From positions 384,001-448,000 of the forward strand of contig CAWJWJ010000002.1 of NCBI GenBank assembly GCA_963846575.1: a DNA stretch of 64,000 bases. The letters are read 5' to 3'. Positions within the stretch are counted from its first letter, which is position 1. Every line of letters begins with the position of its first letter. Under the pieces are notes generated by a model, which worked only from the letters and a program-made list of their open reading frames with translations, did no database searches and was not told where the DNA came from. A program made the translations under genes and the position numbers. Below are positions 44,639 through 58,432 of this stretch, piece after piece. This DNA is from an uncultured Nitrospiraceae bacterium. GTDB lineage: Bacteria > Nitrospirota > Nitrospiria > Nitrospirales > Nitrospiraceae.

Positions 44639-46936
44639 ATGCCCGAATCGATGGACATGACCAAACTCGTCCCGCCCGGCGTGCTGCGGGAGGAAAAGCC
44701 GTTGTCCTCCGCCTCCGCGGAAAGCGAGCGGCGTAAACGCCATGTCCGGCCGGTCTGGATCGTGCTCATCCTGCTACTGCCCTGTCTCGTCCTGACGTTC
44801 TACTATGCCCAGACCGCTATCCCGCTAGGTGAGGAGTCGGATTCCTTTCTGCCCAGCACCGGGTACGCCTTCGTGCTTCTGCTGGTCAATCTCGATTTGA
44901 TCGGCTTCGTCGTTCTCACGCTCCTGCTGTCACGCAATCTCATTAAGGCCTATTTCGAACGGCGGCATCGGCTGGTGGGGTCCGGCTTCCGCGCGAAACT
45001 GGTCGCGGCGTTTATCGGATTTTCGCTGATTCCGACCGTCTTGCTGGCACTGGTCGCGAGCGGGTTGGTGAATAAGGCGGTCGACGTCTGGTTCAACGAT
45101 CAAATCGAACATGTCATGAAGGATTCCTACGAGGTCGCGCGGATGCATCATGCCGGCCATGTGTCGCTGGCGATCAATAGCGCACGCGCCATCAGTCACG
45201 AAATCTTCCGCGAAGAGCTGCTGTTACCTGAGCAACGTGACCTACTTGTCGCGGCAATCGCGAGGAAACGTGCGGAATATGCCACGGCCGGGATCGAAGT
45301 CTTTTCTTCGAAAATGGAAACTCTGACCAAGTCGCTCGATCCGGAGGTGCCGGTCACCGTGCTTGATCTGCCGATCGGCCAGTTGGTATTGCAGGTGATT
45401 AACGGCAAGCAGGAACTCACGTCGGTGCAGGAAGCGCAGACTGGCCGTCTGGTGAGGGCCGGGGTCCCCATCGCTTCGAGCATCCACCGTGGTGAGATCG
45501 ATGGTGTGGTGGTGGTGGACGCTTACGTGCCTGAATCTTTGCTCGGGAAGATGGAGAGCATCGGGCGCCAGTACTCCGAGTATAAACAGATGAAGGCCAT
45601 GAAGAATCCGATCAAGGCCGGGGCCTATTTGCTGGTAGCTGTCATTACCGTCATGATCCTGTTCAGTGCCACCTGGTTCGGCTTCTACGTGGCCCGTGGT
45701 ATCACCGTTCCGATTCAACGGCTGGCCGAGGCAACGGAATCCATTGCCCAGGGCGATCTCTCCGTGCGCATTGAAGCGAAAGCGACCGATGAAATCGGCA
45801 CCCTGGTCGAATCCTTCAATCGCATGACAGGCGATCTGCAGAGCAGCAAGACGAAAGTGGAAGAGGCCAACGTGTCGCTTCGGCAATCCAACCTCGAGTT
45901 GGATCGCCGGCGTGCCTATATTGAAACGGTGGTGGATACGATTGCTGCGGGGCTGCTCTCCATTGATCGGCAGGGGATCATCACTACCTTCAATCCGTCC
46001 GCGGAGCGCATGCTCGGGCTTTGGGCCGACCGGTTTCGCGGGCGGCCGGCCAATGAGGCGTTTAAGGAATATAAGCTGGACCTGTTTCAGTCCGTGTATG
46101 ATCGTATGCTGGCCGACCAGCGCGACAATATAGCGGTCGAGGGTCAGTTGGACCTGCAGGGGCGATTCCTGACCATCGGCGTGCACTGTTCGCGGATGAA
46201 GGATGAAGCGGCGAGGGATCTGGGGTTCGTGCTGATTTTTGAGGACCTTTCGGAATTGATCAAGGCGCAGAAGGCGGCGGCCTGGCGTGAGGTCGCGCAG
46301 CGCATCGCCCATGAGATCAAGAATCCGTTGACGCCCATCCAGCTCTCAGCCCAACGGCTGCGGAAAAAGTTCCAGGATAAGGCTCCGGATTTTGACCGGA
46401 TTTGCGACGAATCCACCCAGGTGATCGTGAATGAGGTGGGTAGTCTGAAGCAGATGCTGGACGAGTTCTCCAAATTCGCGCGCATGCCGGCGCCTCACAT
46501 GACGATGGGCTCATTGGACGACGTGGTGAAAGAAGTGGTCGCGCTGTATCAGAGCGCGCATCGCGAGATCGACTGTGTGGTGGATTTGGATCCTGACCTG
46601 CCGTCGTTTAATTTTGACCGGGAGCAGATCAAGCGCGTGCTGGTCAATTTGTGCGATAACGGTATTCACGCGATGAACCACAAGGGCCGGCTCTGGATTA
46701 CCACCCGCTACGACACGAAACAGCGAAGGGCGGTCGTAACCGTCGCGGATGAAGGATCAGGGATCGCGCCCGAGGATCAAGAGAAGTTATTCGTGCCGTA
46801 CTTTTCGAGAAAAAAGACCGGAACGGGGCTGGGACTAGCTATTGTACGGCGAATTGTGACCGATCACGACGGCCAGATTCACTCGGGAAACCATCAGCCC
46901 AAAGGCGCGCTGTTTACCTTTGAGCTGCCGGTGTAA
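44639..46936 (+). CDS. ntrY: NtrY-like sensor histidine kinase (TM, HAMP, PAS, HisKA, HATPase)
   Basis: AWREVAQRIAHEIKNPLTPIQLSAQRL; HAMP DEIG.LV.SFN.M; GTGLGLAIV. Confidence 0.85.
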   Translation: MPESMDMTKLVPPGVLREEKPLSSASAESERRKRHVRPVWIVLILLLPCLVLTFYYAQTAIPLGEESDSFLPSTGYAFVLLLVNLDLIGFVVLTLLLSRNLIKAYFERRHRLVGSGFRAKLVAAFIGFSLIPTVLLALVASGLVNKAVDVWFNDQIEHVMKDSYEVARMHHAGHVSLAINSARAISHEIFREELLLPEQRDLLVAAIARKRAEYATAGIEVFSSKMETLTKSLDPEVPVTVLDLPIGQLVLQVINGKQELTSVQEAQTGRLVRAGVPIASSIHRGEIDGVVVVDAYVPESLLGKMESIGRQYSEYKQMKAMKNPIKAGAYLLVAVITVMILFSATWFGFYVARGITVPIQRLAEATESIAQGDLSVRIEAKATDEIGTLVESFNRMTGDLQSSKTKVEEANVSLRQSNLELDRRRAYIETVVDTIAAGLLSIDRQGIITTFNPSAERMLGLWADRFRGRPANEAFKEYKLDLFQSVYDRMLADQRDNIAVEGQLDLQGRFLTIGVHCSRMKDEAARDLGFVLIFEDLSELIKAQKAAAWREVAQRIAHEIKNPLTPIQLSAQRLRKKFQDKAPDFDRICDESTQVIVNEVGSLKQMLDEFSKFARMPAPHMTMGSLDDVVKEVVALYQSAHREIDCVVDLDPDLPSFNFDREQIKRVLVNLCDNGIHAMNHKGRLWITTRYDTKQRRAVVTVADEGSGIAPEDQEKLFVPYFSRKKTGTGLGLAIVRRIVTDHDGQIHSGNHQPKGALFTFELPV

Positions 46937-47083
46937 ACGACGCTGGGACCAGGGACCCATAGGATATTCCGCGCGGTCATCCGGCAAGGGCCGGTCAGGA
47001 TCGCAAGCCGGTAGGTTGGTGTCACAGTGGCGAGCCGCAAAGCACGGGACTTTTTCCTCACGTCCTCCTAGCCTGGAGAAGAC

Positions 47084-48484
47084 ATGTCTGCCTCGATCCT
47101 CATAGTAGACGATGAAGTGTCGATTCTGAATTCACTGAGCAGCATCCTGGAGGATGAAGGCTATGAGGTGAGTGTGGCCAAGAGCGGAACGGAGGCTCTC
47201 CGGTTGTGCGCGGTGAGTCCGCCGGAGTTGATGATGCTCGATATCTGGATGCCTGAGATGGACGGGCTGGAAACTCTCAGGCGCTTGCGTGAACTGGTTC
47301 CGAATACGCAAGTCATGATGATGTCGGGGCATGGGTCGATCGAGACGGCGGTCAGGGCTATTAAGCTGGGAGCCTATGATTACATCGAAAAGCCTCTGTC
47401 ACTCGAAAACGTCACGCTGCGGGTCAAGCATGCCTTGGATCAACACAGGCTCGAACAGGAGAACCGGACGCTTCGCACCAAGGTGGAACGCAAGTTCGAG
47501 TTGATTGGACGTGCTCCGGTCATGCAGCAATTAAAACAAATTATCGAAACGGCCGGTCCGACCAACAGTCGTGTATTGATCGGCGGTGAGAATGGAACCG
47601 GAAAAGAACTCGTCGCCAGGGCGATCCATCAACATAGTGCCAGAGTCGACCGTCCATTCGTGGCCGTGAACTGCGCCGCCATTCCCGAAACCTTGATCGA
47701 GAGCGAGCTCTTCGGGCACGAACGAGGGTCGTTCAGCGGCGCCACGGCCATGAAGCGCGGCCAATTCGAGCAGGCCGACAGCGGCACGCTGTTTTTAGAT
47801 GAAATCGCGGACATGAGCCTCAGCACCCAGGCGAAGGTCTTGCGGGCTCTTCAGGAGCAACAGTTTACGCGGGTTGGCGGAAGCAAGTTGATCAAGGTGG
47901 ATGTGCGGGTGTTGGCAGCGTCCAATAAGGATCTGTTGAAGGAAATTGACAAGGGTACCTTTCGGGAAGACCTGTTTTATCGCCTGAACGTGGTGCCGAT
48001 CGTGGTGCCGACGCTGCGCGACCGTCGTGAAGATATTCCATTGCTCGTGAAACATTTTCTCCATGTGCATGCCGAAGAACAAGGCTTGAAGATCAAGCAG
48101 GTGTCGCCGGAGGCGATGGACGTATTCATGCACTACGAGTGGCCGGGTAATATTCGCGAATTGCGCAATTTGATCGAACGACTCATGATCATGGTGCCGG
48201 GTCCGGTCATCGAGGGCACGCATGCATCGGTGGCATTACACGTCCGTCCTAATCTGTCGGCGCCGCCGGTCATGGCGGGTGTTCCACCGGCCAATGCCCT
48301 GCTGACGAGGCATTACGACTCCCTTCGCGACGCCCGCAATGCGTTCGAGAAGGAATTTATCGCACGCAAGCTGCGCGAGCACCATTGGAATATTTCCCGC
48401 ACGGCCGAAGACCTCAAGATCGAGCGCAGCCACCTCCATCGCAAGATCAAGTTGCTGGATGTGGAGATGCGCCCTGAAATCTGA
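47084..48484 (+). CDS. ntrX: NtrX-like sigma-54 family response regulator
   Basis: REC domain (DIWMP, SGHG), AAA+ GENGTGKE, GSFSGA in place of GAFTGA, C-terminal HTH. Confidence 0.85.
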   Translation: MSASILIVDDEVSILNSLSSILEDEGYEVSVAKSGTEALRLCAVSPPELMMLDIWMPEMDGLETLRRLRELVPNTQVMMMSGHGSIETAVRAIKLGAYDYIEKPLSLENVTLRVKHALDQHRLEQENRTLRTKVERKFELIGRAPVMQQLKQIIETAGPTNSRVLIGGENGTGKELVARAIHQHSARVDRPFVAVNCAAIPETLIESELFGHERGSFSGATAMKRGQFEQADSGTLFLDEIADMSLSTQAKVLRALQEQQFTRVGGSKLIKVDVRVLAASNKDLLKEIDKGTFREDLFYRLNVVPIVVPTLRDRREDIPLLVKHFLHVHAEEQGLKIKQVSPEAMDVFMHYEWPGNIRELRNLIERLMIMVPGPVIEGTHASVALHVRPNLSAPPVMAGVPPANALLTRHYDSLRDARNAFEKEFIARKLREHHWNISRTAEDLKIERSHLHRKIKLLDVEMRPEI

Positions 48485-50420: not shown

Positions 50421-50496
50421 GGGGGGCTAGCTCAGTTGGGAGAGCACTACGTTCGCAACGTAGGGGTCGGGGGTTCAACTCCCCTGCCCTCCACCA
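50421..50496 (+). tRNA. tRNA-Ala (anticodon CGC)
   Basis: 76-nt cloverleaf: acceptor GGGGGGC/GCCCTCC with G3:U70, anticodon arm CTACG-TTCGCAA-CGTAG, TTCAACT T-loop, encoded CCA. Confidence 0.97.
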
Positions 50497-52159
50497 CTTT
50501 CGTTGATGACTTCAACGCCTGTCAGTAGACGATCGAATGTACCCGTGGCCGTGAAACGATAGCCTCGTTTCCCGCCTTTCTCAACGGGCTCGCACACAAT
50601 ATGTCCATCTAAAAGCTTCCTGAGCATTTGGCGGGCAAGAGGAATCTGTCTGGCAAACAGGGCAGGGATGTCTCCCACACGATTTCTTAGTTCCTTGGCC
50701 AGACGATTCTCGTCTACCTGAACCAGTTCGACAAGCTCATCAAGTTTTACTAATTCTGCCAATAACGTCTTCTTCCTTGCTTCCTCATGATGTAGGGACT
50801 CATCTATAGCATCAGTTGCTCTACCGTTTGCGATGTGTTCAACGAGATGATGTAGCCGCGTTTGTATCAAGGAGAGTTCTCGCTCAATAGCGACGCGCTG
50901 ATCAGGAAATTTCTTCTGTTCATTCCTGACTCGTTCGAGAGCTTTGGCTACTGAAGCTTCTAGCACCTGCTCATCTAGCACGTCGTTTATTGCGTGAAGA
51001 ATTGCGGAATCGAGGATATCCTGTCGGACTTCCACACTGTTGGTACACACAGCATGGCCCCGCTTATGATGATAGGCACAGCGATATGCGATTCGTGTGT
51101 AATGCTGTTTGGAGGTTCGCTTGATTGCCACGATTGACCCGCCGCAGGTGACACATTTTGCAATGCCGCTGAGCAAATAAGTAGACCTTAAATCCTCGCC
51201 TGTCGGTCGCGAAATGAGACGGCCACTTTTCTCTCGAAGGTACGCGCATTTGTTACTCAACCTGCGCGCTTCGACCTTTTCCCACAGCGTCTCGGAGATA
51301 ATCTTCAATTCTGGCGCTTCTAATCGAAGCCATTCCGACTGCGGACGTTTTCGTTGCTTACGGGTTCCACCCAGCTGGACGGTTTGAGTCCGATTCCAGA
51401 GCACCACTCCACGATAAAGATCACGGTGCAAAATGTCTCGAAGGGCTGTCGGGCACCACCCAAGAACCCCGCCGTGCGGAGGTGCGATGTGATCTTCATT
51501 TAATGCTTTTGCGATGCGGGCGAGCCCAAGCCCTGACGCGTACATTTCGAAAATCGGACGACGACCTTAGTTTGTTCAGTATTAATTCTTCTCACCACGT
51601 GTTGACGATGTGGTGTCCCGTCCGCGTTCGCCTGGTTACCGTATATGGGGACATTGTCATAGCCAAACACCTTATTCCCCGTTACGTGAAGAGCCTTGGC
51701 TTTTCGAAACATGGCGTCATAGGTTCTTTGACTCGCTTTCTCTCGCTCCATTTCTGCCGAGAAATTCGTGAGGCTGAGCATCACTTTGTCGAGAGCATTG
51801 TCGAGCTTTCGTTCTTGATTGGTCAGATAGAAGAATATGCGCACGCCACTGTCGATAATTTGCTTAAAGGCATAACTTGATTGAATGGCCTCGCGGCCCA
51901 ATCGAGACTCTTCGCTCATAATAAGAACTTGGAAAGCTGGACGTGGCTTAAGAGCATTCATCAGTCGAAGAAAGCCCTGTCGCTTTAAGAATTCCGCGCC
52001 AGACACGCCGTCATCAGAGTAAATATGCTCCTTAGAAACGGTCCAGCCCTTTTGTTCGGCATAGGCAATACCGTGTTCTATTTGACGAGTAACCGACTTC
52101 TCTTCATCACTGAACCCTACCTGTTCAGTCGACTTTCTACAGTAGATGGCCGCAATCAT
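50475..52159 (-). CDS. Large serine recombinase (integrase), about 560 aa, one frameshift near 51555
   Basis: Catalytic IYCRKST, SDDGVSG and ESRLGR; recombinase domain (FGY...IFEMY..G.G...IAK.LN); Zn ribbon CVTCGG...YRC; coiled coil. One added base joins the two ORFs. Confidence 0.88.
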
Positions 52160-52232
52160 CCCACTGCTCCTTTCAATTCCAAGTCGCCGCGTTTCGGCGA
52201 GGGAACATGAATGTTCCGACGCTGAGGGATTA

Positions 52233-52451
52233 TTAGCTTTCAGTGGACGGTGTCAACGCTAATTTACGGTTGGTTCGGGAAGGGGAATCGACCGTAAACA
52301 CTGTATGTGCTTGAAGATCCAAGAGAAGTAAATCATCAAGCAATGAAGAAATGTCATCGCGGAGTTGAGCGGAAATAGCTGTCTTGTCGGTTGGTGTCCA
52401 TTGTATTGATTTCTCTCTCACATGGATCGACCTAGCGTTACATCGTTTCAT
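52233..52451 (-). CDS. Small hypothetical protein upstream of the integrase (possible directionality factor)
   Basis: 72-aa ORF co-oriented with the integrase; amphipathic LRDDISSLLDDLLLLDL; function is positional inference only. Confidence 0.35.
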   Translation of the reverse strand: MKRCNARSIHVREKSIQWTPTDKTAISAQLRDDISSLLDDLLLLDLQAHTVFTVDSPSRTNRKLALTPSTES

Positions 52452-52713
52452 ATAAATGCTCTTCAGATTTAATTGGACCGGTGCCATTTACAAGATCCCA
52501 GTTCCATCGACTGAACCGTCTGCCGGTCCAACGGCTCCACGCCAAGAGTAAATCTCAGTAGGTGCGACCCGCGGCCGGGGAGCAGGGGATCAGGCCTTCC
52601 CGTCCGTTCGTCCAGGCCTGCCCGCTGCGAGAGCCTCGTGCCGCCTCTTCTTCTACGCCCCACCCTCGGTGTGTGAAGGGTGGGGCTACATAGCAATGAA
52701 GAAGGAGGCGCAC

Positions 52714-53217
52714 ATGTCTGTTGAAGGCTCTCTCGGTTCCTCGAACGGTGGACGGCCACTGAGCCAAAAATCCCGCTACGGCGTGCCTCGGTACCGCGTC
52801 ACGCTCGTGCGCGAGGGCCGTGCCATTCCCGCGACCGAGTCCATCACGACGTCGGAGGGCGCTGCGGAGCTCCTGCGTCCCTTGTTCGCCGGTCTGGACC
52901 GGGAGCAGTTCCTGTTCTGTGGCCTGGATGCGAAGCATCGGCTTATCGGCATCAATGTGGTGTCCACCGGGTCGCTCACCCTGGCCATTGTCCATCCCCG
53001 CGAAGTCTTCAAACCGCTGATCCTGATGAATGCCGGGGCCTGGATTTGTTCGCACAACCACCCCTCTGGCGATACCATGCCCAGCCCGGAAGATCGCGTC
53101 CTGACCACACGGCTGCGCGAAGCGGCTGATCTGTTCGGCATTCCGCTGCTGGACCATCTCATCTTGGCTGACGACCGCTATTACAGCTTCGCCGACCAGG
53201 GCTGGTTCGGCGCCTAG
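52714..53217 (+). CDS. RadC-like JAB/MPN domain protein
   Basis: DREQF....LD.KHR.I, VHPREVFK, HNHPSGD..PS.ED and LLDHLI motifs; AAGGAGG RBS. Confidence 0.92.
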   Translation: MSVEGSLGSSNGGRPLSQKSRYGVPRYRVTLVREGRAIPATESITTSEGAAELLRPLFAGLDREQFLFCGLDAKHRLIGINVVSTGSLTLAIVHPREVFKPLILMNAGAWICSHNHPSGDTMPSPEDRVLTTRLREAADLFGIPLLDHLILADDRYYSFADQGWFGA

Positions 53218-53342
53218 CGGAGCAGCCGCACCACCCAGGTCGCTCCGGCGGCTACCAAGGCGAGCCCGATCGCTGCCGTGCCCCAGGCGACCAGGTCGGT
53301 GGCCAACGCGTTCCCGATGTTTTGAATCTGTTGCGCCGTCAT
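53214..53342 (-). CDS. Leaderless coat-like protein, 42 aa, paralog of the adjacent major coat (not in ORF track)
   Basis: AAGGAG RBS; MTAQQIQNIGNALATDLVAWGTAAIGLALVAAGATWVVRLLR*; DL..W.TA.IG.AL shared with 53436-53648. Confidence 0.7.
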   Translation of the reverse strand: MTAQQIQNIGNALATDLVAWGTAAIGLALVAAGATWVVRLLR

Positions 53343-53435
53343 CACGAAACTCCTTTGCCGCCACCCTCTCGATGTTGTCGTAGGATGCGAGAAAAGGAGG
53401 CAGGCTGCTGCTCAGCCCGCCTCGATGGGCTCTTC

Positions 53436-53648
53436 CTAGCCCACAATCGCGCGCACGCGCTTAAAGGCGTAGATCGCCAGGGCCACGCCGATCAGGGCCG
53501 TAGCCCACAAGAGCAGATCAGCCCGCACTGTGGCCACATCCGCCGACACCGGAAACAACTGCGCCTGTGACAGCGCCGGGATGCCCAGGGCGAACACGAA
53601 CGCCATGAGCACGCCCCCAAGCCCCTTGACCCAACCCCATCCCTTCAT
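53436..53648 (-). CDS. Major coat protein (pVIII-like) with signal peptide, 70 aa
   Basis: Strong AAGGAGGTG RBS; leader ending SQA; mature part has amphipathic N-term, TM and basic C-term FKRVRAIVG. Confidence 0.8.
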   Translation of the reverse strand: MKGWGWVKGLGGVLMAFVFALGIPALSQAQLFPVSADVATVRADLLLWATALIGVALAIYAFKRVRAIVG

Positions 53649-53715
53649 ACTGCACCTCCTTGTGCTGTGGTGGTCACGTCCACCCACGCCGCCGGAATGC
53701 TCGCCGGCGGACGAG

Positions 53716-53759
53716 TGCCTCAAGGCCTTGAGGCAGAATCAGTGCTGAGGCAGAATCAG
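53716..53759. repeat. 20-bp perfect palindrome overlapping a 14-bp direct repeat
   Basis: TGCCTCAAGGCCTTGAGGCA at 53716-53735; TGAGGCAGAATCAG at 53729-53742 and 53746-53759. Confidence 0.85.
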
Positions 53760-53843
53760 CTTGATAATCAGACCGACGGCAAACCCGCCGAGCCAGAAGA
53801 TCGCTGTGAAGTAGGTCATCATCTCAATCGCCTGCTGGTCCAT
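53739..53843 (-). CDS. Small single-TM protein, 34 aa (pVII/pIX-like; not in ORF track)
   Basis: AAGGAG RBS; MDQQAIEMMTYFTAIFWLGGFAVGLIIKLILPQH*. Confidence 0.65.
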   Translation of the reverse strand: MDQQAIEMMTYFTAIFWLGGFAVGLIIKLILPQH

Positions 53844-54831
53844 AGAACACTCCTTCGCCGATCAGCTGCATCGATCCCTCTTCATAGACTTCCGACACGA
53901 CGACGCCATACCGGCCGGTGATCTGAGCCGCCGTGAGGATCTCGCCACTGTCCAACAGATAGCGCCAGCCTTGACGGTTCGCCGACATGCCGGCGCCGCC
54001 AAGAATGCGCACGGGGCGTTTGGGAAGTGACGGTGTGGCCACGGAGGGAGCGAACGCGCCCAAGGGATTCACCAGACTGCCCGGCGTCGATGCAGACGGC
54101 AGCGAAGACAATGTCGCGGTGCTACTCACGCTCGTTGCCGGCACTCCCTTGGTGCTGCTTAATGACGACCAGGGCCGCCAAACCATGAGGGTGAGAGCAA
54201 ACAGCCCTGCCGCAATGCCGATCGCCACCCGCGCCGACTTGAAGACCGTATGGCTGCGTTTCTCTTCCCGGATCGCCGCCGACGCGTAACTGGAATAGTA
54301 GGCGTAGATCGCCGGCGAATAGGTCCCGACGAAGGCCCGAATGACGTCATGGTCTTCGGGGTTCCCGCGCACCTTGCCCTGATATTTTTTCGCCAAGCCC
54401 ACGAAGGCGAGTTTTCGAAACTTCACCGTGGCTTCGATGAGCCGGGTCACACCTTGGGACATCTGGCGGAAATCCTGGCTCATGAGCAGAATGTCCACGC
54501 CGTAATGCCGATGGGTTTCGAGCCAGCGGAGGAGACCTGGCTCCACCTTCTGCATCGACCGAAACACGGTCTGGGCTTCGTCGATAATCACCGCCGAGCC
54601 CGGTTCGACATGTGGAAAGGCCTGCAGGACTTCCACGGAATCCTTCCAGATCGTGATCTGCTGTTCGAGGACGGAAAGTTCGATGCCCGTGAACAAGGCC
54701 AGCCGATCCAGATAGATCCCATCGACCGCGATGTAGAGTCGCCGGCCTTGCCGCACCCAGGGCAAGAATTTCTCGCAGATCGCGTGGTAGGACTTGCCCG
54801 AGCCCGGCACGCCTTCATACAGTTCAATCAT
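53824..54831 (-). CDS. Zot/pI-like morphogenesis ATPase
   Basis: Walker A GVPGSGKS at the N-terminus, Walker B VIIDEAQ, HRHYGVDILLMSQ, single TM then Ser/Pro-rich tail. Confidence 0.92.
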   Translation of the reverse strand: MIELYEGVPGSGKSYHAICEKFLPWVRQGRRLYIAVDGIYLDRLALFTGIELSVLEQQITIWKDSVEVLQAFPHVEPGSAVIIDEAQTVFRSMQKVEPGLLRWLETHRHYGVDILLMSQDFRQMSQGVTRLIEATVKFRKLAFVGLAKKYQGKVRGNPEDHDVIRAFVGTYSPAIYAYYSSYASAAIREEKRSHTVFKSARVAIGIAAGLFALTLMVWRPWSSLSSTKGVPATSVSSTATLSSLPSASTPGSLVNPLGAFAPSVATPSLPKRPVRILGGAGMSANRQGWRYLLDSGEILTAAQITGRYGVVVSEVYEEGSMQLIGEGVFYGPAGD

Positions 54832-54914
54832 CGGAGACTCCTCAGATACACCCAGATCCACAGGGCTAAGACGACGGTCCAGGCATAGGCCCACCCGATC
54901 ACGAGCTGGTTCAT
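54828..54914 (-). CDS. Small single-TM protein, 28 aa
   Basis: MNQLVIGWAYAWTVVLALWIWVYLRSLR*; ATGA overlaps with both neighbours. Confidence 0.65.
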   Translation of the reverse strand: MNQLVIGWAYAWTVVLALWIWVYLRSLR

Positions 54915-55186
54915 GAACCCCACCGGACAAATGGAATAGTCTGTAAGATGAATCGGGTCCCCATGGCGCTCGCCAGGATGGCCAGCGCCTGACTCATGCC
55001 CGTCGCGCCCAGCACCCACGCGTACTGATCGGGGATGACCGGCAGCGTGAGGCCTGCCGTCCCCACGGTCGCGAGCGTGCTGTCCGCCGCGGAGAGCAGC
55101 GAATCCCAGATGCTCAATCCCCAATCGGTGAGGGAGAAGAAGAACTCCTGCAGCCAGCAATAGATCAGGGTCAGAATGGCGGTCAT
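54911..55186 (-). CDS. pVI-like (DUF2523-type) minor coat protein, 91 aa
   Basis: MTAILTLIYCWLQEFF...AWVLGATGMSQALAILASA...RFILQTIPFVR; ATGA overlap with the upstream stop; lies between the pIII-like gene and pI. Confidence 0.75.
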   Translation of the reverse strand: MTAILTLIYCWLQEFFFSLTDWGLSIWDSLLSAADSTLATVGTAGLTLPVIPDQYAWVLGATGMSQALAILASAMGTRFILQTIPFVRWGS

Positions 55187-55819
55187 GAGCTGGTCTGGCC
55201 TCCCACAAAGATGATGCGGTACGCCGCAATGGAAGCCGCCGCAATGACCAATGTCCGGAGCACAGTGAAGAACCAGGCCCATTGATTGAAGTCGACGTGC
55301 TGACTGCCGAAGAAGGCGGAGGGCAGCGCAATCACCGGCAACGTCGACCGCACAGAGGGGAACATTGGTCGTGCTGAATTGGATGCTCGCATTGAGGTAA
55401 TTCGCATTGGCCGGGGTGCTGGTCCCGAGACCCGGAAAGGTCTGGATGCCGGCGTTGCTGCTCGTGACTTGCCAGCCGCCGGGTGTTGAAGCCGCCGATT
55501 TAATGGCCGACAGGTCGGATTGCGAATAGTACATCTGAGCCAGGACTAAGCCGGCCCCCACGCCGAGTGCGGCCCACCCAACCGGACCGGCGACCATGCG
55601 GACGGCTACAGAGGCGGCCGAGGGCGCCACTGCAGCGGAGGCCACCTGACCCGCCAAGGCGGACCGTTGCGCGGCGAGATAGGCAATGCGTTCGGCTTGC
55701 GCGACCACCCTGGAATACTGCGTGGCGGTTTGTGCGAGGGATTCTCCAGGTGCCAGACAGAACGAGACCAAAAGGCCCCAGATAAGTGAGAGATAACTGG
55801 TGAGTGAAAGCAGTTTCAC
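55183..55819 (-). pseudogene. pIII-like attachment protein, frameshifted and probably internally deleted near 55348
   Basis: Signal peptide and ~155-aa N-part in one frame; C-terminal anchor STLPVIALP...VDFNQWAWFFTVLRTLVIAAASIAAYRIIF in another. Confidence 0.65.
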
Positions 55820-55890
55820 AATCGTCCAACTCCAAGGCCGGTGAGGAAGGCCAGTAACAGGACCGCCACGAGAATAATGGTGAGATCCAC
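55816..55890 (-). CDS. Small single-TM protein, 24 aa (pVII-like)
   Basis: GGGAGG RBS, GTG start, MDLTIILVAVLLLAFLTGLGVGRL*; GTGA overlap with the pIII-like start. Confidence 0.6.
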   Translation of the reverse strand: MDLTIILVAVLLLAFLTGLGVGRL

Positions 55891-56394
55891 CGGCCTTCCT
55901 CCCTCTGCCGTTATTTCAAGACTTCCAGCCCAGAGAGGTCGAAGAAGACCCGTCCGGTCTGCTCGAACTTCCGGACTTCGATCGAGACTTTCGCTTGCTT
56001 GCCCTCGGCTTGCTTGCAGGCTTCGATTAAGGGCATCTGATCGTCCGGAATCCCCAATCGAAGCACCCCCGGATCTCGGCCCTTCACATAGAGATCCACC
56101 GATCGGTAGACTTTCCCTTCCCGACTCCTCCGCTCCACATAGCCCTGGACCGCTCCCTCCGCTTTGACTTGCATCGTCGTCCCCTCCTGAATAATGGATT
56201 GAATTCGGATCAGCCAAGCGCCTGACCCACACGCCCCGGCCTTCAGACCGGGCTTTTGGTCGAAAGCAGAATTCCGAATCGCATTCCCGACAGCTCAGAT
56301 ACAAGGCGCCCTGTTCCCACTTGCACCGACAGCCTCTCGCGCCACATCCCGGACACATGCGTCGCCAGTAGCCGTTATGAAACTCTAAGGACAT
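55816..56394 (-). CDS. Zn-ribbon ORF (CPGC...CREC) reading through the SSB gene in another frame
   Basis: Two CxxC pairs in the first 40 aa; true extent uncertain. Confidence 0.35.
   Translation of the reverse strand: MSLEFHNGYWRRMCPGCGARGCRCKWEQGALYLSCRECDSEFCFRPKARSEGRGVWVRRLADPNSIHYSGGDDDASQSGGSGPGLCGAEESGRESLPIGGSLCEGPRSGGASIGDSGRSDALNRSLQASRGQASESLDRSPEVRADRTGLLRPLWAGSLEITAEGGRPVDLTIILVAVLLLAFLTGLGVGRL
55911..56174 (-). CDS. ssDNA-binding protein (pV-like), 87 aa
   Basis: Size, beta-rich pattern (SREGKVY hairpin), position after Rep, GGAGG RBS. Confidence 0.65.
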   Translation of the reverse strand: MQVKAEGAVQGYVERRSREGKVYRSVDLYVKGRDPGVLRLGIPDDQMPLIEACKQAEGKQAKVSIEVRKFEQTGRVFFDLSGLEVLK

Positions 56395-57367
56395 AGGGCG
56401 TGCCTTTTCGTCGTTCCTTCAGCAGGGCATAGTGTTTCTGCTTCCATTTCTTGGTGCCGGCATAGATCAACTCCTTCAGGAACTGATCACCTCGGCAGGC
56501 CACCACCACGGCCAGCATCGAGGCAACGGATTGGGCGAGCCAGGCGGCCACGTCATCTAGCCGTTGCTGAATCCGTTCAACCACCAGGCGGCAGCGCTTG
56601 AAGCCTTCGGTCAGGGCGTGCCACCACCCCAACAGCGGCGCCCGATATTTTTCGTAGGATTCCGCTTCCCGCGTCGTCTCGCGGAAATCCACATAGGAGC
56701 GGAGCACCCCCACCATAAAGGCCCGCCAGTCTTCGGCATCGAGCGTGAGCAGAGCTTTGGCGCAGGCTTGGGCCCGGTCTTGTTTGAATTCCATTTCCCA
56801 CCGGACTCCATAGGAGGCCGCGTCTTCCCGGCCTTCGACTCTGCAGTTCCAGTCGTTTGTCATAGACCCGCAGCATGCTTTGGCTTTCCCGGCTGCCAAA
56901 GTAGAGGGTTTCACCGGTCCGGACCCCGTCGCGTGATTGGAGGCTTGGATCACTTTGAATTGCTTAGACCGACTCACGACCTGTCCGGCTTCCACGGCTT
57001 GCCGGACGGTCTCAACTGCGACCGTGGCCTCCCGGTCGTCCAGGGCCACGTCGGTCCGAGTCACATGGCCCTTCTGCGCGAAGATCCAGGCCAGGACCGT
57101 CTTCAGCTTGATCTCATCCCACTGGGAGATAATTCCGGCCGACAGATCCACGTGCACTTCCTTCGGACTGCGAGGCGCACCCGTCCCCAGTTTCCCCACG
57201 CCGGTCTTGCCCTGCGTCATGAGCCGTGCGACGGGATAGCCGCGAAAGCCCGTCTCACTCTGGAACCAATCGCCCCCAATCGTCTTGATGACCTCGTCCA
57301 CGTCAGCCTTCGGCAGTGTGAACGCCAGCCAATCAATCGTGTGAGTGAATCCGCCAGAACCCGTCAT
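56375..57367 (-). CDS. Rep_trans-family rolling-circle initiator; two compensating frameshifts near 56930 and 56836
   Basis: IDWLAFT, TRTDVALDD and RWEMEFK; the catalytic segment GETLYFGSRESQSMLRVYDK is in an alternative frame. Confidence 0.88.
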   Translation of the reverse strand: MTGSGGFTHTIDWLAFTLPKADVDEVIKTIGGDWFQSETGFRGYPVARLMTQGKTGVGKLGTGAPRSPKEVHVDLSAGIISQWDEIKLKTVLAWIFAQKGHVTRTDVALDDREATVAVETVRQAVEAGQVVSRSKQFKVIQASNHATGSGPVKPSTLAAGKAKACCGSMTNDWNCRVEGREDAASYGVRWEMEFKQDRAQACAKALLTLDAEDWRAFMVGVLRSYVDFRETTREAESYEKYRAPLLGWWHALTEGFKRCRLVVERIQQRLDDVAAWLAQSVASMLAVVVACRGDQFLKELIYAGTKKWKQKHYALLKERRKGTPYVLRVS

Positions 57368-57396
57368 TTTTTGCTCCTTGGCTTGCGTGCGATAGA

Positions 57397-57423
57397 CGCC
57401 CCCGTCTTACCAAGTCGGGGGCG
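57397..57423 (-). other. Predicted double-strand origin (nick-site hairpin)
   Basis: Minus strand CGCCCCCG-ACTTGGTAAGA-CGGGGGCG, 30 nt upstream of rep; resembles the C-run/TAA/G-run nick hairpins of Rep_trans/MOBT enzymes. Confidence 0.7.
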
Positions 57424-57676
57424 GGGTCGGCTGCGCGCGCCGCCGGCTGGCGCCGCCTTGCGCGCTGCGCGATCCCGTCTTTCTCCCGGCTTCGACAAAA
57501 GACGGACCATTCCCTTTGGCCTGCAGCGCTTCCTTGACGCGTTCAAGATCGAAACGGACGAACCGACAGAAGCGATCAACCGGAATCTCGCCTTTGCGGT
57601 AAGCGCGGCGGATCGACTTCGGGCTGACTTTGAGGACGGCGGCCAACTCATCGACGGTTAACCATGTTTGTTCCAT
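57407..57676 (-). CDS. Xis-like/HTH_17 DNA-binding protein
   Basis: WLTVDELAAVLKVSPKSIRRAYRKGEIP...VRFD; AAGGAG RBS. Confidence 0.85.
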   Translation of the reverse strand: MEQTWLTVDELAAVLKVSPKSIRRAYRKGEIPVDRFCRFVRFDLERVKEALQAKGNGPSFVEAGRKTGSRSAQGGASRRRAQPTPPPTW

Positions 57677-57765
57677 CACGTCTCCTTTGTGAGTGCAGCA
57701 CACGATGTATGGCGGAACCATACGCATCTGCGTGCGGTGGTGAAAAGAGGCCGGTTCATGGACCT

Positions 57766-57795
57766 GGGGACACCAGGGGACACTGAGGGACACTA
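57766..57795. repeat. Three tandem 10-bp direct repeats
   Basis: GGGGACACCA GGGGACACTG AGGGACACTA, upstream of the HTH gene. Confidence 0.8.
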
Positions 57796-58432
57796 CGGCA
57801 TTCCATTCCAAGCCGTGATCAGAGCAGGAATGGGAGTCGAAGGAATCTATGCAAAAAGATTGTCAGGAGGATGAGTCGCTACTGAAGAATGACGAAAGGC
57901 CACGCTGGGCTTGATGGTTCGACGGCTGGTACGAATAAGGCCTATGGAAATTTATAGGGCAAATGGAACTGAGATGAGGCGAATCATCTTTAGCGCCCCG
58001 ATCAAAATACGGCGCAATCATGCAAAAAATAGTCATCGGGCCAAATTACTTTGAATAGGGCCAAATGGCTCTGGCCTCAACAGGGCGAATTCGAGCCTCG
58101 TGCTTTGGGCAATAGAGAGAAGTCACAGTGGACGGTGTTGCAAGAAAGTAATGGTTGATGGCCTTCCAACGAGCGAAGACTGGAAAACTGTAGAGCCCGA
58201 GATAATCGACTTCACCTTCGGGTGAGTGTGAAGTGGGTATGGTCCTGGCCGACCAATGCGGCTGAAGAAAATAATCACGACTACAGTGGGCTTGCAAGCG
58301 ATTAAGTTCGCACATGCGGTACAAGAGGTTCTTATCTCTCAGCCTTAAACAGAAACCCCCCTACTGCACGTTTGGCACTTCGCGGCAGTTGGGAGCACTC
58401 GATCAGCAGTGGCAGGAAGACTCTGTGAAACT

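Follow-up and report, generated by a model that had tools for sequence, protein, structure and literature searches.

An antisense radC gene with a conserved two-hairpin leader in an inovirus-like prophage of Nitrospiraceae: a candidate establishment leader for the incoming single strand

We found that an inovirus-like prophage in the 64,000-nucleotide stretch of Nitrospiraceae DNA analysed here (the window) carries one gene, radC, antisense to its phage genes and preceded by a conserved leader of two hairpins, an arrangement that is real and conserved and appears to be undescribed. As the best explanation, to which we give about an even chance, the leader is an establishment leader acting on the incoming single strand. 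The minus strand would enter the cell as virion ssDNA and fold; host RNA polymerase would bind the folded leader and make RNA in the radC direction; and this leader RNA would yield RadC early and may serve as a primer for the second strand as well. The folded structure would then be lost once the DNA became double-stranded, and in the lysogen a stem covering the Shine-Dalgarno sequence (SD) would silence read-through RNA. As the polymerase contact, a sigma-54-like -24/-12 site in hairpin 1, clear in relatives and degenerate here, would be likeliest.

The prophage and its antisense gene

Judged by gene content, the element is an inovirus-like (filamentous) prophage, with a pI-like (Zot) ATPase, a rolling-circle Rep and small coat-like genes sharing one direction. 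The minus strand encodes an xis-like HTH protein, Rep_trans, an SSB-like protein, pIII/pVI-like proteins, the Zot-family ATPase and two coat-like proteins, and past the coat-like genes come radC on the plus strand, its leader and a serine recombinase gene ending at tRNA-Ala. The features, in window coordinates, are:

50421..50496, plus strand: tRNA-Ala(CGC), where the element probably has its left end
50475..52177, minus strand: large serine recombinase, in two parts in this assembly because of a frameshift near 51545
52561..52581, no strand assigned: 5' edge of the leader, a homology boundary; weak pairing with the first radC codons (plus strand) is possible
52582..52628, minus strand: hairpin 1 (CAGGCCT 52591-52597 / AGGCCTG 52614-52620)
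52638..52713, no strand assigned: hairpin 2, with an inner 10-bp G/C stem (52657-52686), a loop ending in GTGA and an outer stem
52714..53217, plus strand: radC, JAB-only RadC protein of 167 aa (REQF...HNHPSGDTMPSPED), from Pfam, PDB, motif and dN/dS
53214..53342, minus strand: small coat-like protein 2, so labelled for its size, its hydrophobicity and where it lies; its stop and that of radC overlap
53436..53650, minus strand: putative major-coat-like protein with a signal-like N terminus
53824..54831, minus strand: pI-like morphogenesis ATPase of the Zot family (PF05707, E 2.5e-29)
54911..55819, minus strand: pVI-like gene and pIII-like gene (DUF2523 weak, below cut-off)
55911..56174, minus strand: putative ssDNA-binding protein in pV-like position, from position and conservation, with no family match
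56375..57367, minus strand: Rep_trans replication initiator (PF02486, E 1e-21)
57398..57422, minus strand: hairpin GCCCCCG-ACTTGGTAAGA-CGGGGGC immediately upstream of rep, a putative double-strand origin
57407..57676, minus strand: HTH_17 excisionase-like regulator (PF12728, E 7e-8)

The coat label of protein 2, which gave no Pfam or PHROG match, is putative, as is the origin role of the hairpin upstream of rep, which recurs unchanged in almost all of the 40 most frequent upstream sequences. Alignments of three siblings that share the recombinase run through the tRNA-Ala region, and no repeat of the tRNA end was found that could mark a right att site. The prophage does not end at the leader, since a variable excisionase/integrase module comes next, and the siblings carry interchangeable tyrosine or serine integrase modules beyond it. 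Like the CTXphi-type Rep_trans filamentous phages (sections of PMC5714925), the element has co-directional genes for Rep_trans, an SSB-like protein, coats and a Zot-family ATPase, but it differs in that an integrase of its own, tyrosine or serine, lies at tRNA genes and that an antisense radC cassette separates the morphogenesis module from the integration module. Four copies of the element were present in the window's genome, and 41 of the 61 genomes searched had some match, including 36 of 36 of the same genus, many of them matching weakly. Three more distant Rep_trans genes were also seen (G000:C2:130722-131664, C2:524615-525557 and C1:849827-850768), with no radC or pI match in the 10 kb examined.

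The pIII-like gene of the window is about 630 bp shorter (deletion at 55343-55347) than those of the siblings, which look whole. In addition, rep is locally out of frame at about 56830-56950, and together with the pIII deletion and the split recombinase this represents either decay or long-read error, sequencing error being possible because other copies in the same assembly also carry frameshifts.

The radC ORF matched PF04002 (RadC) in Pfam with E 7e-39 and 132.9 bits against a cut-off of 22.1, and its product matched PDB entry 2qlc (E 4e-21). When 7 truncated or interrupted copies were dropped from the set of 116 relatives, the catalytic E and the HxH-x7-S-xx-D motif were intact in 108 of the 109 full-length ones, the window copy included, and the median dN/dS of radC was 0.14 (91 pairs). 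On these sequence data, radC is a real, conserved gene whose catalytic motif is intact. Translation likely starts at the ATG at 52714, behind AAGGAGG, in preference to the GTG at 52669. Because the other 13 ATG-started plus-strand ORFs of more than 40 aa in 50501-58100 lack an SD-like motif, radC is the only credible plus-strand gene, as the first-pass annotation of this DNA had maintained. That annotation had also pointed to an overlap of the radC and coat-2 stops: both lie within CTAG at 53214-53217, and the overlap is conserved, reading TTAG in 85 of the 109 full-length relatives. On re-reading of the sequence, all of its hairpin and stop coordinates were correct.

The direction of radC, whose conservation among homologues the same annotation had proposed to check, was fixed: the gene was antisense to pI in all 98 related loci having pI (identity 43-94%) and to rep in all 82 having rep. 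These loci are kin and partly redundant, and therefore represent few independent events. At L119, a locus outside the host's class, radC is antisense to a G2P-type Rep, i.e. a different Rep family. No close RadC relative was found among 46 matches in the 'phages' collection, all of which were below 60% identity. The protein resembles the RadC JAB family (PF04002; PMC3239186, PMC5512222) in its intact metal-binding motif, its presence on mobile elements and its adjoining ArdC, but it is JAB-only, lacks the HhH domain and is inovirus-borne.

The leader and its counterparts in conjugative elements

The conserved leader spans about 52561-52713. Two hairpins had been proposed here by the first-pass annotation, and both were correctly placed and exceed chance, but the second is longer than described, reaching from about 52638 to 52713 and covering the SD. 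Its inner stem (GCCCCACCCT, 52657-52666, with AGGGTGGGGC, 52677-52686) lies within an outer stem in which a CT-rich arm pairs with the SD (AAGGAGG, 52702-52708). All 70 unique sequences carried GTG where the hairpin-2 loop ends, and eight core pairs kept Watson-Crick pairing in 99 or more of the 101 unique leaders. Compared with shuffles, the fold of 241 nt (52480-52720) had z values of -2.2 (minus) and -2.7 (plus), and that of the 88 nt of hairpin 2 had values of -5.4 and -4.5 (25 shuffles). The pairing between the 5' edge and the first codons is weak and register-selected. No Rfam covariance model matched the leader at E up to 5. RNAalifold, applied to the gapped inovirus alignment, returned a weak structure in which 0 of 15 pairs covaried and which was taken for an artefact; helices were therefore counted by anchors instead. 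A tandem GA is invariant on the sense strand (98 of 98 and 97 of 98); a kink-turn reading of it was rejected after the loop geometry, compared by eye with the consensus, did not fit. The pattern CCCCACCC...GGGTGGGG occurred in 16 stretches of viral contigs. Sequencing runs yielded 24 rows, all with a share of at most 0.10, of which 4 were seen as contigs, giving no strand, start or level.

Related JAB-only radC genes were found in conjugative elements that carry virB genes and encode a MobA/VirD2 relaxase, and there they are preceded by a two-hairpin leader of different sequence and similar build. In one such element, L110, near-identical leader copies stand before radC and before ardC, which fits the parallel with plasmid leading regions drawn by the first-pass annotation. 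The 5' edge of the ardC leader (L110:5490-5750) is an inverted copy of about 30 nt of the first ardC codons, and looks as if it had been re-fitted to a new gene by template switching. A model built from 15 conjugative-type leaders (R1) had matches in 43 of 151 family genomes, up to 10 per genome, and L112 had five on one strand within 16.5 kb. The genes read behind 28 R1 matches were the gene of a 78-aa protein (15), radC (4), ardC (3) and DUF6908 (1), the other five being broken, unclear or other. The inverted-repeat leader is repeated before establishment genes in the conjugative group, and each phage has one copy. The presence of a similar leader before radC, ardC and an uncharacterized gene therefore indicates an establishment-gene leader and not a radC oddity.

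R1 also found the window leader at its exact place, weakly (E 0.04), and likewise those of L117, L104 and L119 (10 weak matches), and a GTGA or GCGA end of the hairpin-2 loop is common to the inovirus and conjugative groups. Since the R1 match to inovirus leaders is weak, homology of the two leader groups is likely, not proven. The 78-aa protein, the commonest product encoded behind the leader (L332:1660-1893, and many R1 matches), had no Pfam or PHROG match, unnamed Atlas neighbours and a best fold-search Z of 5.2; its low-confidence model has four strands and one helix. It is a candidate establishment or ssDNA-binding protein. Capsid-less xis-rep-radC-integrase elements (L102:6051-10520 and L103:6322-9924), which keep the same leader as the prophage and adjoin defence-like genes (AAA/REase, nSTAND3-Mrr), are possibly inovirus satellites.

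The incoming strand and its candidate promoter

Filamentous phages package the mRNA-sense strand, and group II introns lacking an endonuclease favour ssDNA. Rep_trans nick sites sit in hairpins (sections of PMC5714925). In 4 of 4 loci (L052:3787-6023, L053, L057 and L117; 3 genomes), group II introns within radC lay on the phage-gene strand, i.e. antisense to radC, at a single site just before HNHPSG, and a scan of two intron proteins found no endonuclease family. The claim of the first-pass annotation that the packaged strand is the template for radC thus stands on indirect evidence: the minus strand is probably both, which fits the position of the putative origin upstream of rep, the orientation of radC and the strand of the introns. 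In two conjugative elements radC was on the relaxase strand, as was ardC in one of them, and the transferred strand would therefore be the template if the relaxase lags (sections of PMC11541004).

A Frpo-type promoter, with -35/-10 elements formed in the folded stem, had also been suggested and was not borne out: when the minus strand was folded, no -35/-10 boxes were found on the 3' arm of either hairpin by scan or by eye. Because no such pair is present in the stems, the leader is not a Frpo as defined in sections of PMC9849209 and PMC11541004. It resembles the Frpo/ssi elements of F and ColIb-P9 described there in being a folded template-strand leader, with a stable stem-loop on that strand, that is repeated before establishment genes and may double as a primer site, whereas the Frpo stem is long and rebuilds sigma-70 -35/-10 elements and the present leader is about 150 nt, phage-borne and has a -24/-12-like candidate. 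Compared by eye, it showed no likeness to the known list of Frpo/ssi sequences.

It is unlikely that the hairpins are instead a single-strand origin and/or packaging signal, with radC transcribed from a weak dsDNA promoter in the downstream arm of hairpin 2, just before the SD. In 62 of the 70 unique leaders of inovirus type, that arm contains a -10-like hexamer, [CT]A...T, usually CATAAT, and a start within the arm would free the SD; however, the window copy lacks the hexamer, a -35-like loop motif is 14-16 nt off with variable spacing, and a sigma-70 scan found no promoter at the window leader and none upstream. As for an origin, the leader is the main non-coding stretch besides the rep origin and is retained by the capsid-less L102 and L103, but an origin would be needed neither before each establishment gene, up to five times in 16.5 kb, nor for pairing with the SD.

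Among the mismatch types of the core helices, those with G retained on the minus strand outnumbered the reverse by 32 to 11 (p 0.002), a count that excludes three rows with stem indels and comes from related sequences in which ssDNA deamination could add bias. A.C versus G.T mismatches alone numbered 13 versus 7 (p 0.26). In hairpin 1, the outer helix, which lies outside the core count, had 8 versus 9, i.e. no minus bias. On the plus strand, the helices that involve the SD and the start codon are rich in G.T; taken with the core bias to the minus strand, both strands may therefore be under selection, minus as DNA and plus as RNA.

In another reading, which we consider quite unlikely, the leader would work at the RNA level, as an EGeRS1-like insulator or attenuator that blocks read-through and hides the SD until triggered. 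All groups have the SD covered by the outer stem, pairing of the 5' edge with the first codons is possible (over about 30 nt in the copy before ardC in L110), and the sense strand has both G.U-rich SD/start helices and the invariant tandem GA. The EGeRS1 leaders of pLS20-family plasmids are likewise G+C-rich inverted repeats that precede ardC and other establishment genes, lack a housekeeping-sigma promoter and block read-through (sections of PMC8708921), and CT-rich anti-SD insulators have been reported near sigma-54 promoters (sections of 10.1101/086108). However, the core-stem mismatches are mainly those stable on the template strand, neither an Rfam match nor an upstream promoter was found, and the constant antisense orientation to the virion strand is left without account. 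EGeRS1 leaders are also 400-600 bp and their transferred strand is the non-template according to the authors, whereas here the incoming strand is probably the template, a comparison made with the published description of EGeRS1.

In the establishment leader, the candidate polymerase contact lies in hairpin 1. The invariant hairpin-1 columns of the conjugative group are TGGC-N8-TGC on the template 3' arm, which is the spacing of the sigma-54 consensus. In 25 distinct hairpins of non-inovirus relatives, selected by a script in which the TGGC, TGC and TG.CA letters were fixed and the base opposite the -24 G was left free, this base was A in 23 (an A.G mismatch), and the pair after -12 was mismatched in 21. 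With A opposite the -24 G, the gene-direction dsDNA copy reads TGTCA; the mismatch would thus spoil the sigma-54-like site in the double-stranded copy, and the stem would rebuild it on the template strand. A -15 T was present in 3 of these 25 (host-phylum set), and the loop of hairpin 1 in relatives ranged from about 4 to 25 nt or more. Pairing in a 15-sequence hairpin-1 alignment exceeded that of shuffles (0 of 500 reached it) and the middle pairs covaried, a test made partly circular by the choice of 6 of the 15 rows by pattern and pairing. A strict hairpin-1 model (R2) had members in 13 of 151 phylum genomes, five of them outside the host family (one a training sequence), and one member sat before a RadC-like start; of 10 inovirus-type loci it matched one, marginally (E 1.2), and it gave no match to the window hairpin 1.

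On its minus-strand 3' arm, hairpin 1 of the window reads AGGC-N9-TGC, followed by two T.C mismatches, and is fully paired at -24, failing the model of TGGC-N8-TGC plus A. The rest of the build is present, with a stem that opens after the -12 GC, a GTGA-ended second hairpin and then the SD. On the template arm, leaders of the inovirus group retain GG and TGC, together with the two mismatches after TGC, with A as the -26 base and a template-arm spacing of 9 in 60 of 103, the extra base of which could be bulged out by the hairpin. These features suggest that the window hairpin 1 is a degenerate counterpart of the sigma-54-like hairpin of its relatives. TGGC-N8-TGC alone occurred 1055 times in the window's genome.

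Known sigma-54 promoters share with the relatives the TGGC-N8-TGC spacing and the fork junction right after -12 (for the fork, sections of PMC5095919), but the candidate site here is built by a hairpin, has a mismatch at -24 and is degenerate in the window's family. Sigma-54 requires an activator even on pre-opened DNA (sections of PMC7057263). A start 12 nt past -12 (52640) would keep the SD-covering stem in the mRNA, and the host encodes RpoN (PF04552, E 5e-56 in G000). A sensor and AAA+ response regulator pair at 44639-48484 of the window, which we take from its translation to be NtrY/NtrX-like, is possibly of the sigma-54 activator type in the host.

When viral contigs were scanned by pattern, 83 stretches were obtained, of which 80 were retrieved and 17 passed an arm-pairing filter; four viral loci among the 17, from three elements, also had the second hairpin, SD and start. 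In a microvirus (L312:1524-1811), the sigma-54-like hairpin and the second hairpin are on the coding strand, before an antisense 62-aa gene; its closest relative, L346, lacks the cassette, which was found in 1 of 78 microviruses picked by Rep. The same build precedes co-directional genes at L275:4001-4043 and L259:3916-3958, and these two of the three elements look like dsDNA phages (with a T7-type terminase in L275 and endonuclease VII in L259), copies that are unexplained under a single-strand model. L669 adjoins DnaB-type replication genes. Among the matches listed, two planctomycete genomes had the full build, in one of them before a weak methyltransferase match, and in a third hairpin 1 and a nearby ardC shared a strand. 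In scans with the mismatch base free, the matches listed were mostly perfect palindromes, which swamp such scans and make them no measure of A enrichment; 10 mismatch cases among the genome matches listed had A (5), T (4) or G (1). A 39-bp perfect inverted pair of sigma-54-like sites was nearly unchanged across Bacteroidales (L429 and others among the matches listed).

It is improbable that hairpin 1 consists of two sigma-54 sites placed back to back in dsDNA, or is a palindromic operator, its good site driving divergent xis/int or virB genes and its structure incidental or cruciform: perfect sigma-54-like pairs are indeed common between divergent chromosomal genes (110 of 120 matches listed were not of the mismatch type), xis/int and virB genes diverge from the leader and dsDNA phages carry the motif, but copies between co-directional genes keep hairpin 1 (L110, L112), the loop is variable, A is opposite -24 in 23 of 25 and the middle pairs covary. 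A repressor-based alternative is described in sections of PMC6294495 and the EGeRS1 alternative in sections of PMC8708921.

Within the establishment-leader explanation, we tentatively propose, as a doubtful possibility, a class of single-strand promoters read by sigma-54, in which the hairpin would rebuild the -24/-12 elements and the fork, the mismatch would silence the dsDNA form and the window would hold a diverged member. That the class would be common to conjugative elements and ssDNA phages (inoviruses and the microvirus) in several phyla, and give ssDNA phages zero-time genes that are read ahead of replication, is put forward with the same reserve.

RadC and the meaning of the leader

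Published context arguments suggest that RadC may be a zinc-dependent enzyme on nucleic acids that aids survival or establishment of the incoming strand, although we put the chance of this somewhat below even. The company of radC and a published domain-context hypothesis also make it a candidate for an anti-defence role. RadC was not named as a leading-region family in the supplements of PMC11541004 that were searched (one mention of RadC and one of JAB), and the main text of PMC6813254 contains no occurrence of RadC. Among literature titles and abstracts, covering few subscription papers, none dealt with RadC in inoviruses, single-strand promoters in phages or sigma-54 single-strand promoters.

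The single-strand promoters described in sections of PMC9849209 and PMC11541004 are all from conjugative plasmids and have sigma-70 boxes. If the present explanation is true, ssDNA phages would express counter-defence genes before second-strand synthesis, and a second sigma factor would be usable for single-strand promoters. The leader is also a marker, by which radC, ardC and the genes of the 78-aa protein and the 62-aa microvirus protein become candidate establishment or anti-defence genes, and its context provides a concrete setting for testing the function of RadC.
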